Shown here in pieces: positions 2,622-20,460 of a stretch of 64,000 bases of DNA. The stretch is from sequence record KP869102; one strand, given 5' to 3'. The translations under genes and the position numbers were made by a program. The DNA comes from Escherichia coli O157 typing phage 4. How positions within the stretch are numbered: the first letter of the stretch is position 1; each line of letters starts with the position of its first letter. A model generated the notes under the pieces. That model was not told the DNA's origin. It made no database searches and worked only from the letters and a program-made list of their open reading frames with translations.

Positions 2622-2876
2622 TTAATGTTCAGGTTTTACAAAAACGACTTCATTAACAGTGCACCAGACAGAGTCTCCTTCATCATCTTTAAAGGTAAGG
2701 CACTGTGCTGAGTTTTCCAGCTCATCGATCTCTTCTTGTGATAAAGGGGCCCCTTCTTCCAGAAGGGCTTTTACCAGAGGGTTCTCACAAAACTCTGCTT
2801 CATAAATTGCACCGACTGTGCAATCTTTAAAAGCTCGGTCATTTGCAACGCATTCTGGCTTCAAAGTAATTTTCAT
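2622..2876 (-). CDS. hypothetical small protein, paralog of 2286-2618
   Basis: ORF track 84 aa; AFKDCT and KDDEGD motifs. Confidence 0.55.
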   Translation of the reverse strand: MKITLKPECVANDRAFKDCTVGAIYEAEFCENPLVKALLEEGAPLSQEEIDELENSAQCLTFKDDEGDSVWCTVNEVVFVKPEH

Positions 2877-2952
2877 CTTGGCAGTCTCCTTAGTTATTTA
2901 AAAATCACCGATCTGTTTGTGTGAAGCATCTTATATCTAATCTTACTTCTTG

Positions 2953-3351
2953 TCAATGGCTATTTTCAATCAGCCACACAGGGTCGAGGTAAATTTGTTG
3001 GCGTGTTGCCCAATGACAAACTTCATTGTACATCTGAATCTCTTTGTCCGTCAGTTCACGAATAGGCTCATCTATACCCTCATTTTTGTGGTAATCCCAG
3101 TCGGCATCGATTTCCCACAGCCATGACTTGTTGTCACCACGCTTACGCACACAGAAGTCACCGGGACGGCCTGCCAATGCATTTAAGAACTCGTTCTCCG
3201 CTCGCTCTTGGAGAATACTAAGGAGCAAAACGTTAGAACATGACCGTAGAATATGCTTCAGCTCACAATCATCAATCTCAACTTCAATACGTTGTTTGAC
3301 TGTGTGGGTACCTTTTACTAACATCCTACCTCCTCTAAACGAACTCTGCAA
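2953..3351 (-). CDS. hypothetical protein
   Basis: ORF track 132 aa. Confidence 0.5.
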   Translation of the reverse strand: MQSSFRGGRMLVKGTHTVKQRIEVEIDDCELKHILRSCSNVLLLSILQERAENEFLNALAGRPGDFCVRKRGDNKSWLWEIDADWDYHKNEGIDEPIRELTDKEIQMYNEVCHWATRQQIYLDPVWLIENSH

Positions 3352-16120: not shown

Positions 16121-16130
16121 NNNNNNNNNN
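16121..16130. other. assembly gap (N10)
   Basis: Run of 10 N. Confidence 0.95.
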
Positions 16131-16440: not shown

Positions 16441-16450
16441 NNNNNNNNNN
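16441..16450. other. assembly gap (N10)
   Basis: Run of 10 N. Confidence 0.95.
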
Positions 16451-16756: not shown

Positions 16757-16965
16757 TAAACACACATGCATCTGAAGAGACATCCAAAGGAGTGACTATA
16801 TGTCCCTTGGCTGAGCCAGTGAAAGAGGAAAACTTCGATTCTGAAGATTCTCCATCTTCGCTCCAGGTAGATCCTGAGGCTGATGACCTAACGTGGGAAG
16901 ACATCGTAGATATCTGGTTCTCTATTATGCCTGAGCACGAAGAGTTCAGGGGTGGTAGACTATGA
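16753..16965 (+). CDS. hypothetical acidic protein
   Basis: ORF track 70 aa; same strand as promoter; no clear RBS. Confidence 0.3.
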   Translation: MINTHASEETSKGVTICPLAEPVKEENFDSEDSPSSLQVDPEADDLTWEDIVDIWFSIMPEHEEFRGGRL

Positions 16966-17086
16966 AGCACCGAGCCCACACAGGTTCCTCATGCTAAAGC
17001 ATGGCCTGAAGAGGCAAACGTGCATAATTCCTGTACATTGGGACGTATAAAACCCTGTTCACATTCTCATTTCCAGAGGAGATTTC

Positions 17087-17302
17087 ATGAAGATAGAAAT
17101 ATTTGGTGGAGCTGACAATACTCGTGGCCTGATTTACCTTGAATTCGATGAATCATACCTGCCAGAGGTGTTAAATATGGACTCTGTTGCTGATGCTTTG
17201 GGAGTAAGTCCTAAAGATCTCTACTCTGGTGCTGAGATTGATGGTTGGGAGGAGACCATGAACATTGATTTCAGTGAAGTAGGTGATGAACCACTGGACT
17301 GA
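17087..17302 (+). CDS. hypothetical acidic protein
   Basis: ORF track 71 aa; RBS AGGAGA upstream of ATG. Confidence 0.5.
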   Translation: MKIEIFGGADNTRGLIYLEFDESYLPEVLNMDSVADALGVSPKDLYSGAEIDGWEETMNIDFSEVGDEPLD

Positions 17303-18142
17303 CACACAATTAGCTACCCGGCTAAAGTGCTGGGAGCACCTATAACACATCTTTCAACTAAATTTCCTACCACCACAATCACTTACCTCCCACACATGAC
17401 TGTTTGCTTGTTTAGTGAGCAGTCATGCCTTGACATTCTTGCCTATCCTGATAAAATTAAGTTCTTCTCTTTTCTTTTACCGAGTAATTCGGGTTTTCTG
17501 TTCTCTTCGGTTTGAAGGGGTATGGAGATACACCTGAGTGAACAGGGTGAACAACCGAACATTTGGCTATGGCATTAGCATGGCGAAGCGGACGGGTGAC
17601 GAAAGAGGGGCCGGAGGACACCAGTCACTGCCATATGGTATATGGGTGATAACCTGAAGAGTCTGAATAAGTGTTTAAGTACCAGTCAGAGGAAAAGGTG
17701 AATGGTAGCCGAAGGGGGAGGGGGGTTTCTTGTATCTTTAATTTGTATATTATGTATACACTTGTAAACCAATCTCATTTGAATTTGTTTACCACACAAA
17801 GTGGATAGAGACAAATATTACCTATTAAACTTGAATTATTTATAGAAAATACCACAACACTACTTAAGTCTTTGATTTTACACACAAATCCTGCAGATAT
17901 TCACCCTCCATATTTAACATACTTGTAACATATTCCATACTCTACCTGCCCGATCAATTCACCCAACTACATCCCCATATTTTCCCTGTCTGTACTACCC
18001 CTGCCCCGCCGGGAGTCCCGTCATATCTGGCTTTCCAGCAAATATCACACCCACAAATATCATTGCCTGAAGAGGGTTTCGTCCCATAATACATGCCTTA
18101 CCTGAAGAGCGCTTCATATACCCCGTAAATTTTTTAATTGAC

Positions 18143-18172
18143 CCCCTCCCCGCCGCCGGAGGGGTCGGCTTT
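18143..18172 (+). terminator. possible intrinsic terminator hairpin (weak T-run)
   Basis: Stem CCCCTCC/GGAGGGG with loop CCGCCGCC followed by TCGGCTTTTCC. Confidence 0.25.
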
Positions 18173-18719
18173 TCCCACACAGACCTGAAGAGTCAGCCAG
18201 AAATATCTGAATGGACCCAATTCTGCCCTGTTATGAGCCGTAGCGACTGGAGTGCTGCCAGGCGGACGAAATGGGAATACTTCTCATTCTTATAACAATT
18301 CTCAAATATCGAGGCAGTGAGGCAAATTAATAGGTAAGGCCGTTCACATAGTGGCACAACATTTGCAGTCTATCTGATGTGGTTGAATGAGAATACCTAT
18401 CATTGTGAGAATAGTTATCATTACGGGCAATTTAACATAATACCCATTATGCGCACCACTGGCGATACATACAGGGATTGATAACATGAGTTACTGTTTA
18501 CGCATATAACAATTATATTTCTTATCATTTGTGTGGGATATAGTTAGCAGCCGATAGATTAGATATTGACCTGCGGACTTCTGACCGTCTAGACGTCTAA
18601 ACGCCCACACAACAAGGCTTATACATACATCGCTGAATGTAAACATGGCCGCAAAAATGCTACCATACAAGATTGTAAATTTTTCATGCAGCACTTGACA
18701 AAGAGGAGAAAAACTTGTC

Positions 18720-18762
18720 TGACACTTTAGACATACTGGTGACACAATATGACACTTTAGAC
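18720..18762. repeat. direct repeat, 2 x TGACACTTTAGAC
   Basis: Identical 13-mers at 18720-18732 and 18750-18762. Confidence 0.8.
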
Positions 18763-18779
18763 TTAATTGACATGCCTGA

Positions 18780-18956
18780 CTGTTTACGCTGTCACTATTC
18801 GCGCTATTACTATTCACTCCCTTTACTGTTCACGCTCTTACTGTTTACATGCTTAATGGTTTACATGCTTAATAGACTGCATGTCTAATAGTTTACATAG
18901 CTAACTGTTCACATACTTATCATTTACATGATTGACTGTTTACACAGAGATGATAA
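18780..18956. repeat. iteron-like array of TGTTTAC(A) motifs, including a tandem 16-bp unit
   Basis: (C)TGTTTAC at 18782, 18843, 18859, 18891, 18948 plus variants CATTTACAT, CTGTTCACAT, CTTTACTG; GTTTACATGCTTAATG twice in tandem at 18843-18874. Confidence 0.75.
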
Positions 18957-18963
18957 GCCATGA

Positions 18964-19234
18964 CATTCGTTTGCATGACAATAATTAACAAGATAACAAT
19001 TGACAAGCTAACAGCCAACAAGCTGACAATTAACTTGTTTACAATAGATGACATAATATAAAAGCAGGGCAACTATTAGAAGATCTATAGTTGCCTTGCT
19101 TGTTATGTCATGATTAACTAAATACAAGGCAACTATGATCTGATTAATAGTTTGCAAACAAACTATCACGGGGGTGATGGTTACTGCTTTTATATTATGT
19201 CGCGACTCCGTCGCGCCATGCCATTCGTTTGCAT
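18964..19234. repeat. 13-bp direct repeats CATTCGTTTGCAT bracketing the palindromic element
   Basis: Copies at 18964-18976 and 19222-19234. Confidence 0.8.
19050..19201. repeat. 152-bp element bounded by perfect 18-bp inverted repeats with nested palindromes (MITE-like or cruciform-forming)
   Basis: GACATAATATAAAAGCAG at 19050-19067 is the exact reverse complement of 19184-19201; internal inverted copies of AGGCAACTAT/ATAGTTGCCT and palindrome ATAGTTTG..CAAACTAT. Confidence 0.75.
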
Positions 19235-19850
19235 AGTTGCCTTATTGTTACAGATAAAATAATTGTATTGTTAATTATTTCTTATCTTTCTATTAGTCAT
19301 CTAATGATTCCAGTCAATATAGTAATGTACAGTAAACATTAGACGACTAAAGATTTATCTGCTTATAATAACTTACCGTGACAATTTCGGACTGTTTACG
19401 AAAAATGTTGGCACCTAAGCTGATTTATGTTATGCAGTTTACACGAATAATTATTTTATGCAGGTATTGACTATTCCATTATTCTATGGTTGGAATAAAT
19501 ACTTAGCAGACTATAGAATGGTGAGCGTACGTAAATTCTGAGATCTGGCGGCTATAGTTATACTCGATTTTTCACGTAGAGCACGCTTTTGTGGTTATGT
19601 AAGTGTATGACTTATAAAGATTTTTAGTTGTTGACAAGACACTGAAGATATGCATCAGGTTAAATTTTGTGCAATAGCTGCATTACGTGCAATTTTGGAA
19701 GGAAAAACGGGTAAAAATAGCCCTGCTACCACACAATGAAAAGTTATGCAATAGTTATTTTACATGTATATTTGTACAGTGTGTGGGGTTGATGGCTCGT
19801 CAATTATTCCACTTGCCAGGTAGGGCCGTTTATGGTAGGGGGAAGATCAG

Positions 19851-19876
19851 ACAAAAAGAAAGGGGCCTAAGCCCCT
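19851..19876 (-). terminator. intrinsic terminator
   Basis: Hairpin AGGGGC-CTAA-GCCCCT preceded on plus strand by an A-run (U-run on minus transcript), just downstream of the 19896 gene end. Confidence 0.55.
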
Positions 19877-19895
19877 TGATAATTCAGTTAAAAAA

Positions 19896-20315
19896 TTATA
19901 ATGATTCGTATATTTCAAAAATCCGATTTGCCAGGTCGTTACGGTACCGGAATTTTTCATCACGTTTGATCATAAGATCTTTATAGCCGTACTCTTTAAG
20001 CACTTCATTAACTTTATGGCGGCACACCTTCATATTATCCTGAGCGTCACCAATAAACCTGTTGCTATGGTGCATGGCTTTAATTTCTTCTTCCAGGACC
20101 AGGGCAACTATGCGGACCGGATCAAGCTGATAGGCGGTAACATCAATGCGGCATTGTAAACGGCTTTTTACGTCTGCCACCGGATATACTGCAACCTCTT
20201 CCCCGTCAACATTGACAATAATTAGTTTACCATCGATTTCGAATCCTTTCGCCGCCGGACCGTGACAAAAAGCGTTATCAAAGCTATATGCCGGATTATT
20301 AGATTTAATGTTCAT
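19896..20315 (-). CDS. hypothetical protein
   Basis: ORF track 139 aa; RBS GAGGTAAAAACACC before ATG. Confidence 0.5.
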   Translation of the reverse strand: MNIKSNNPAYSFDNAFCHGPAAKGFEIDGKLIIVNVDGEEVAVYPVADVKSRLQCRIDVTAYQLDPVRIVALVLEEEIKAMHHSNRFIGDAQDNMKVCRHKVNEVLKEYGYKDLMIKRDEKFRYRNDLANRIFEIYESL

Positions 20316-20354
20316 GGTGTTTTTACCTCTTAGTTAATTTTCTTACAACTTCCC

Positions 20355-20383
20355 TTTAAAAAAGAATATAGCAAAACTGCCGA
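20355..20383 (-). promoter_or_regulatory. sigma70-type promoter (TTGACA-17-TATATT on minus strand)
   Basis: Reverse complement gives TTGACA, 17-nt spacer, TATATT upstream of the 20315 start. Confidence 0.45.
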
Positions 20384-20460
20384 TCCTTGTCAATAAGGAT
20401 AGCATAATTTTTATGTGATCAAGGGGCTTTATTGCCCCCCTGACCATGTAACTTGTTGTA

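Follow-up and report, generated by a model that had tools for sequence, protein, structure and literature searches.

A tandem array of short direct repeats built on a GTTYAC core occupies positions 18778–18950 of the 64,000-nucleotide stretch of Escherichia coli O157 typing phage 4 analyzed here (record KP869102; hereafter the window), and homology to relatives with defined genome ends places it immediately to the right of a direct terminal repeat. As judged from this homology, the locus is the junction of the physical genome ends rather than an anonymous intergenic origin. A sequence-only reading of the window had interpreted the array as iterons of a replication origin; the array is real, but for lack of context it was misplaced. 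The explanation that we tentatively favor is that the array constitutes an accessory, expandable cluster of GTTTAC-type protein-binding sites at the terminus, helping end processing or packaging. The two features at the center of this proposal are:

18778–18950, + strand: array of about 11 units with eight strict and three degenerate cores, all in a single orientation.
18261–18719, no strand: direct terminal repeat of 459 bp, present once in this collapsed representation and located by homology to phages EdH4 and Gotham.

The array is formed by about 11 head-to-tail units of 15–16 bp with the core A-c-t-GTTYAC, all of them on the + strand, in which 15- and 16-bp units alternate to give a mean period of 15.6 bp. 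Cores are found at 18782, 18797, 18812, 18828, 18843, 18859, ~18877, 18891, 18907, 18922, and 18938, the eight strict ones reading GTTYAC or ATTTAC and the three degenerate ones ATTCGC, ATTCAC, and CTGCAT. Units are 60–75% alike. Position −3 (A) of the unit holds 1.8 bits, despite not having been used for picking units, and positions +8 to +10 hold about 0 bits. The units at 18843 (GTTTACATGCTTAATG) and 18859 (GTTTACATGCTTAATA) do lie in tandem, as previously described, but the 16-bp repeat is not the perfect one claimed, since they are identical at 15/16 positions.

Motif frequencies are clearly above local expectation, confirming the array as non-random. Exact TGTTTAC occurs 25 times in the window versus 10.7 ± 3.3 expected, nine of these copies being within 18495–19399, while ACTGTTYAC occurs eight times, five of them within the 241 bp of 18720–18960, for which the remainder of the window predicts 0.01 copies (Poisson P = 1.5e-12). 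The two downstream copies noticed earlier are also present: GACTGTTTACG at 19390–19400, identical to positions 18778–18788 of the first array unit, and AGTTTAC at 19436–19442. To these must be added copies at 18495 (+), 18639 (−), 19036 (+), and 19332 (−), which had escaped that reading, and a single TGTTTAC to the left of the terminal repeat (17786). Length differences among the arrays of relatives are not multiples of three, indicating that the array is non-coding; the open reading frames crossing it (18491–18817, −; 18715–18888, +) were accordingly rejected as genes, the alternation of 15- and 16-bp units also counting against them. A scan of 16800–20400 against Rfam, with E-values up to 5, returned only two chance-level eukaryotic matches.

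The 1.5 kb around the array are 100% identical to Escherichia phage JES2013 (NC_022323), a member of the genus Vequintavirus (rV5-like myoviruses), and about 120 vequintavirus records match the region at 88–95% identity. When the terminal repeat plus the sequence flanking it on the right was searched with blastn at sensitive settings, only records of this genus (119) were retrieved, and an exact 20-mer scan of IMG/VR for more relatives yielded one contig only. The region corresponds to a gene-free gap of ~2.6 kb in JES2013 and rV5 (window 17303–19895), which is flanked by + strand genes ending at 17302 on its left and by − strand genes ending at 19896 on its right. In the rV5 genome paper the gap was drawn as a "non-coding" box, the origin could not be placed, and the change in GC skew at the gap was attributed to the switch in transcription direction (PMC3606486).

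The position of the genome ends derives from several vequintavirus records. EdH4 shows an exact 459-bp repeat at both ends of its record, mapping to window 18261–18719; in Gotham a repeat_region is annotated at 1–459, with base 1 corresponding to window 18261; and several further records start at 18261 or end at 18719. Terminal repeats of 458–459 bp are known for EdH4 and HdK5 (PMC6563267) and for Gotham (PMC7471380). Since the terminal repeat maps to 18261–18719, the converging gap would be the junction of two genome ends. By homology (~93% identity), we infer for JES2013 a physical left end at 18261 and a right-end cut after 18719. The array starts 59 bp from the terminal repeat and thus spans 59–231 bp from the inferred cut.

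Relatives were examined as a comparison set of 22, with the region aligned for 16 phages and core-to-core spacings collected from 23. All 76 spacings (76/76) are multiples of 15–16 bp. In addition to the array, single GTTTAC boxes were recognized within and to the right of the terminal repeat:

18496–18501, + strand: single box in the terminal repeat, invariant in 16/16 relatives, with 6/16 flanking columns varying.
18639–18644, − strand: single box in the terminal repeat, inverted, invariant in 16/16 relatives, with 6/16 flanking columns varying.
19332–19337, − strand: single box at the right edge of an AT-rich segment, invariant in 16/16 relatives.
19394–19399, + strand: single box within the 11-mer GACTGTTTACG, with a core invariant in 16/16 relatives and 7/16 flanking columns varying.
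19437–19442, + strand: single box conserved in 14/16 relatives.

Four of these single cores are invariant amid varying flanks, with variable columns amounting to 2/30 in cores versus 23/80 in flanks (Fisher P = 0.01), and V18, the relative with no strict array units, retains these boxes. A conserved core, a fixed period, and invariant single boxes together make up the pattern expected for the recognition sites of a DNA-binding protein.

Under the reading that we favor, a sequence-specific DNA-binding protein would recognize the GTTTAC-type sites of the array, which in replicating concatemers would lie on the left-end side of the junction, where terminase must cut. The array would raise the local concentration of a protein also able to recognize the single boxes, namely the two invariant ones of opposite orientation in the terminal repeat and three more situated 600–700 bp rightwards, and the resulting nucleoprotein complex would mark or shape the junction for end processing or packaging, rather than for replication. 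If only occupancy matters, copy number could drift freely and the role of the array would be accessory, not essential. Accessory status is indicated by V18, with no strict units, and by FFH2 and MaxTheCat, with one each, all of them being isolated and sequenced phages. A more elaborate version, which we regard as doubtful, is that a dedicated system for marking the terminus has the GTTTAC boxes as its cis component, with a phage protein bridging the boxes of the repeat, the array, and the three boxes beyond a palindrome to its right. Such bridging, equally doubtful, would define the place and direction of terminase processing at the concatemer junction.

The array itself varies strongly among relatives, as do some of the elements placed between the terminal repeat and the right-hand boxes:

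18720–18776, + strand: TGACAY repeats with a ~10-bp period, abutting the terminal repeat, about 5–7 units by visual count, a number that depends on the definition used.
18957–18976 (copy 1) and 19215–19234 (copy 2), + strand: conserved 20-bp box GCCATGMCATTCGTTTGCAT, the copies showing 95% identity and bracketing the palindrome.
18983–19042, + strand: second variable repeat AATTRACAAGCTRAC, ~3.5 units with a length of 15 bp, which relatives lack or conserve poorly.
19050–19201, no strand: branched palindrome of 152 bp, closed by an 18-bp perfect inverted repeat.
19242–19331, no strand: AT-rich segment with 21% GC, a value below that of any other 90-bp stretch of the 64 kb (overall 44%).

In the 16-phage alignment, 18720–19040 is the most variable part of the gap (identity 0.2–0.6, with many gaps), the terminal repeat showing identities of 0.86–0.98 and the palindrome and the AT-rich segment of 0.90–1.00. 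Strict units number four to six in most phages, eight in JES2013 and rV5, three in typing phage 14, two in LL12, one each in FFH2 and MaxTheCat, and none in V18, so that absence from close relatives, which the sequence-only reading had named as refuting it, is in part observed. In V18 (NC_041937, locus ~1720–1990) the whole array and the first 20-bp box are absent, their place being taken by 12 consecutive A and a short hairpin of GC (GGTCACCCCTTCAGGTG). Part of the GGTCACCCCTTCAGGTG hairpin also appears between the box and the palindrome in rV5, Murica, LL12, phiWec196, MaxTheCat, HMD-6, and I29. The array region is a mosaic of insertions and deletions.

Such extreme variation in copy number, reaching complete loss in V18, is what a neutral minisatellite would display, that is, slippage-prone junk serving no sequence-specific function in a terminal region free of genes; the array being the most variable segment of the region, the second, unrelated variable repeat adjoining at 18983–19042, and the absence of the array in another genus of the subfamily all agree with it. 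We nonetheless consider this explanation quite unlikely. Neutral repeats would be expected to decay uniformly, but here 3–4 positions hold no information and the core is preserved, together with a single position upstream of it. Moreover, lineages with unrelated downstream sequence share core and period: three array lineages have both in common, with five downstream positions at chance identity (0.23–0.25) versus lineage C. Finally, the isolated GTTTAC boxes remain invariant amid variable flanks.

The other genus is represented by Klebsiella phage KPP-1 (Mydovirus), for which a 514-bp terminal repeat at 116,316–116,829 was determined by PhageTerm (PMC9862379). This repeat sits in the same kind of converging gap. 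The terminal repeats of KPP-1 and JES2013 start with GACGGAC and GGCGGAC, respectively, and end with CTTGACAAGGAGAGAGAATTGTG and CTTGACAAAGAGGAGAAAAACTTGTC, similar boundaries that fit sequence-specific end cutting in the subfamily. KPP-1 also exhibits a branched palindrome with an 18-bp perfect closing stem, of unrelated sequence, ~310 bp to the right of its repeat (z = −10.8; locus 2838–3048), and in JES2013 the palindrome is ~330 bp inside the left end, so that architecture, not sequence, is common to both phages. Because KPP-1 has the repeat and the palindrome but not the array, the array is a feature at the level of the genus, and the palindrome and the boundaries of the repeat are older.

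Phage T7 offers the closest layout. Its terminal repeat (1–160) is followed at 175–341 by twelve same-orientation units with a CCTAAAG core and a 12–13 bp period, an array known as SRL/SRR in the T7 literature; further core copies are found in the repeat (ACCTAAAGT at 16 and 59) and before the right-hand repeat, and the phiOL promoter and an AT-rich segment come after the array. In both phages the array is just inside the left terminal repeat (15 bp from it in T7, 59 bp here), about 11–12 units in the same orientation combine a conserved core with a short variable spacer, extra cores occur inside the terminal repeat (here 18496, +, and 18639, −), and an AT-rich segment follows, the order of elements matching. 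On the contrary, no sequence similarity is observed (CCTAAAG every 12–13 bp versus ACTGTTYAC every 15–16 bp), the T7 motif flanks the repeat on either side but the opposite flank here contains five copies of a different motif, CCTGAAGAG, and the phage here is a 137-kb myovirus without its own RNA polymerase. The T7 array is thus an analogue, not a homologue, and by this analogy the array described here would be a new example of end-adjacent short-repeat arrays, rather than a demonstrated origin.

Repeated elements recognized by terminases, such as the lambda cosB R sites, the SPP1 pacL boxes, and the P1 pac hexamers, provide a second comparison. As in these systems, short repeats are situated within a few hundred bp of the terminase cut and on the side where the packaged genome starts. 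Sites of the cosB and pac types are, however, conserved within a phage group and needed for packaging, while the array here is hypervariable, is absent in V18, and does not show such conservation. Copy-number-variable tandem arrays also adjoin concatemer cleavage or resolution signals in the herpesvirus "a" sequence and at poxvirus ends, the likeness being architectural only, since both viruses and sequences are unrelated.

Several observations weigh against a role for the array in end processing or packaging. Elements recognized by terminase are expected to be conserved, yet the array is the least conserved part of the region, and the candidates for an essential packaging signal are better sought in the segments 17360–17750 and 17990–18080 and in the CCTGAAGAG copies. 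The footprint statistic for the single boxes is modest (P ~0.01). KPP-1 lacks a GTTYAC array, presenting only one TGACAGTTTACAC to the right of its terminal repeat. The T7 array is not known to have an established function, so that the analogy provides an architecture, not a mechanism. Headful packaging was moreover inferred for one vequintavirus from metagenome data of a phage cocktail (PMC13211470), an observation to which we give less weight than to the three phages with defined ends. More generally, the packaging mechanism of phages with direct terminal repeats is poorly understood (PMC13595956).

The left flank of the terminal repeat contains the elements just mentioned. Between 17360 and 17750, that is, 500–900 bp to the left of the terminal repeat, a 390-bp non-coding block is ~100% identical in 16 vequintaviruses that are otherwise ~90–95% alike. 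It shows a near-consensus promoter at 17430–17457 (TTGACA, 16 bp, TAAAAT, and a TG upstream), after which come a hairpin and a T run at 17480–17502. No RNA family of Rfam matches the block, and the predicted RNA fold of the ultra-conserved 17462–17750 is no better than that of shuffled sequence (z = −1.1). Overall, an essential cis element, or an RNA not described so far, is more likely to be found in this block than in the array. The CCTGAAGAG motif is found in seven copies in the window versus 0.52 expected, five of them, all on the + strand, being in the left flank of the terminal repeat (17005, 17653, 18066, 18101, and 18184). Similar copies (CCTGAAGTG and TCTGAAGGG) appear to the left of the terminal repeat in KPP-1, and this family of motifs is particular to the right end of the genome. 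Two direct copies of AAATATCA at a distance of 15 bp were also observed at 18040–18062, inside the ~100% conserved block 17990–18080; KPP-1 presents AAATATCA twice with similar spacing to the left of its terminal repeat, although this sequence is not enriched in the window.

The origin proposed by the sequence-only reading deserves separate consideration. According to it, a phage initiator would bind the GTTTAC boxes and melt 19242–19331, the array being a dispensable control cluster and the single boxes the working sites. Part of its basis stands: sites with a conserved core are reiterated, and the AT-rich stretch reported at 19240–19330 is even stronger than claimed (23% GC versus 44% overall), its well-conserved 90-bp core being the most AT-rich of the window, preceded on the left by the array, followed on the right by boxes at 19332, 19394, and 19437, and adjacent to a large palindrome. 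Direct repeats, a conserved core, a nearby AT-rich segment, and dispensable accessory clusters are likewise shared with the iterons of lambda ori, P1 oriR/incA, and RK2 oriV, and dispensable extra iteron clusters occur in P1 (incA) and RK2. In T7, the phiOL promoter and its AT-rich segment, a secondary origin, occupy the same relative position after the array.

Other features do not fit, and we consider an iteron-type origin unlikely. The AT-rich stretch does not directly follow the array, as had been stated, but is separated from it by ~290 bp containing the 20-bp box, the second variable repeat, and the 152-bp palindrome, although single boxes adjoin it on the right. Classical iterons are phased at ~11 or 22 bp, and whole-turn phasing of initiator sites of ~17–22 bp is not found here, the 15–16-bp units (15.6 bp on average) spanning an atypical 1.5 helical turns instead of one or two. 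Conservation also fails, as the 0–2 strict units of V18, FFH2, MaxTheCat, and LL12 indicate that the array is lost or nearly so in close relatives. Transcription converges on the region, which is located at the physical genome end, and DnaA boxes are not enriched. T7-like replisomes start from transcripts or recombination, not from iterons. The rV5 genome paper describes no initiator, the replisome being T7-like (Pol A and a gp4-type primase-helicase) and the GC-skew change being explained by gene orientation (PMC3606486).

Regarding a possible initiator, a Pfam scan of six proteins (three encoded to the right, two to the left, and an annotated regulator ~3 kb to the left) gave none above the curated cut-offs, with sensitivity limited by most phage genes being without known relatives; initiator-like domains were thus not found in the five neighboring genes or in the annotated regulator. 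The 139-aa gene at 19896–20315 was rejected as well: the annotations of EdH4, Gotham, FV3, slur12, pangalan, and Alma do not include it, and array size does not follow its presence. The repeats, origin, or transcription of this region are not discussed in the papers searched.

Recognition by a host protein instead of a phage one would also produce conserved sites. An OmpR/PhoB-family regulator, or DnaA, could be recruited or titrated at the incoming genome end, the half-sites of such regulators (PhoP, CpxR, OmpR) being similar to TGTTTA or TTTAC. We take the array core to resemble (T/G)GTTTA, the half-site of PhoP, as well as the CpxR half-site GTAAA read in reverse, and some units (GTTTACACA) match 8/9 positions of the DnaA box TTWTNCACA. 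This explanation is nevertheless very unlikely, because regulators of that family (PhoP, CpxR, OmpR) need direct repeats 10–11 bp apart and the array period is 15–16 bp. Boxes for PhoP, CpxR, and OmpR were therefore rejected on spacing. DnaA boxes, allowing one mismatch or fewer, were rejected because neither the array nor the terminal repeat nor the 2.6-kb gap is enriched in them (P = 0.12–0.69); one perfect DnaA box occurs at 17876.

A precedent within the Vequintavirinae subfamily suggests a further explanation, in which the array would encode an anti-defense repetitive non-coding RNA similar to the pseudo-ToxI of phage phiTE. The copy number of the phiTE tandem-repeat locus expands under selection by a type III toxin-antitoxin system, the ToxI repeats being of 36 nt (PMC3475682), and copy number is hypervariable here too. 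The phiTE locus is, however, elsewhere, between a tRNA gene and phiTE_203 and upstream of the terminase gene. The units here are of 15–16 nt and only 60–75% alike, no RNA family matched in the Rfam scan described above, and no convincing promoter was found upstream of the array. Conserved single boxes are moreover present in either orientation, suggesting that it is DNA that is recognized. We therefore regard this possibility as highly improbable.

Among the elements to the right of the terminal repeat, TGACAY-type repeats are present in every relative examined, V18 included, although their number varies; exact TGACAY occurs four times in 18720–18960 versus 0.26 expected (P = 1.5e-4). The 20-bp box is kept in all relatives except V18, which loses copy 1 along with the array. 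Within the palindrome, the hairpin at 19062–19101 reads as an intrinsic terminator on the − strand, in agreement with the terminator annotated at the palindrome (− strand) in Murica and Alma, while the hairpin at 19161–19182 is followed by a T run on the + strand. Its folds are strong on either strand (z = −12.0 and −12.5). The palindrome may act as back-to-back terminators shielding the terminus from transcription, or as a hairpin or cruciform for end duplication. The gene-free region is limited on its right by one more feature:

19860–19877, − strand: intrinsic terminator ending the leftward gene block, with an equivalent annotated in EdH4 and Gotham.

Some further elements were noticed within the terminal repeat. 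Tandem 18-bp units, TGAGAATACCTATCATTG and TGAGAATAGTTATCATTG, occupy 18388–18422, where a repeat is also annotated in phage Alma, and similar AATGAGAAT elements are observed in the KPP-1 terminal repeat; presumably these units resemble a Fur box. At 18586–18603, the overlapping palindromes CGTCTAGACGTC and GACGTCTAAACG contain AGACGTCT, which we take to be the MetJ operator consensus, possibly occurring by chance. A promoter-like site on the − strand at 18672–18701 (TTGTCA, 18 bp, TACAAT; 10/12 matches) is placed at the right-hand margin of the terminal repeat, facing leftwards into the repeat; comparably, T7 has a leftward E. coli promoter (A0) inside its short-repeat array. On the other side of the terminal repeat, 17762–17851 ranks second in AT content among the 90-bp stretches of the window (24% GC), so that an extreme AT-rich segment is found on both terminal flanks.

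Other observations concern the records themselves. Two runs of 10 N (16121–16130 and 16441–16450) bracket a 310-bp piece in the window, and 9000–16058 matches the last 7 kb of the JES2013 GenBank record (129853–136910) in an order that is not collinear. It would thus seem that the window is a scaffold in which separate pieces were joined, the array region, from 16451 rightwards, being unaffected. In the I29 record (ON286975), locus 1–517 and 566–1357 both match window 17936–18724, a partial duplication that is probably an assembly artefact at the terminal repeat. In addition, 18–19 records named "Campylobacter phage" (MG0656xx) are 92–96% identical to E. coli vequintaviruses across the region; one of them, A142, is marked UNVERIFIED, and the host label of the set is doubtful.

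Isolation of vequintaviruses as candidates for phage therapy and biocontrol is widespread. Most of their GenBank records open at an arbitrary point and leave this 2.6-kb stretch as unexplained non-coding sequence (PMC3606486). Placing the terminal repeat in the gap identifies the sequences at the true genome ends and yields testable cis elements, namely the repeat boundaries, the GTTTAC boxes with their array, the palindrome kept in two genera, and the most AT-rich segment. Natural variants with 0 to ~11 units represent a ready-made experiment on the end processing of direct terminal repeats. For genome engineering, this variation suggests that the array is dispensable, while the single boxes and the palindrome are probably not.

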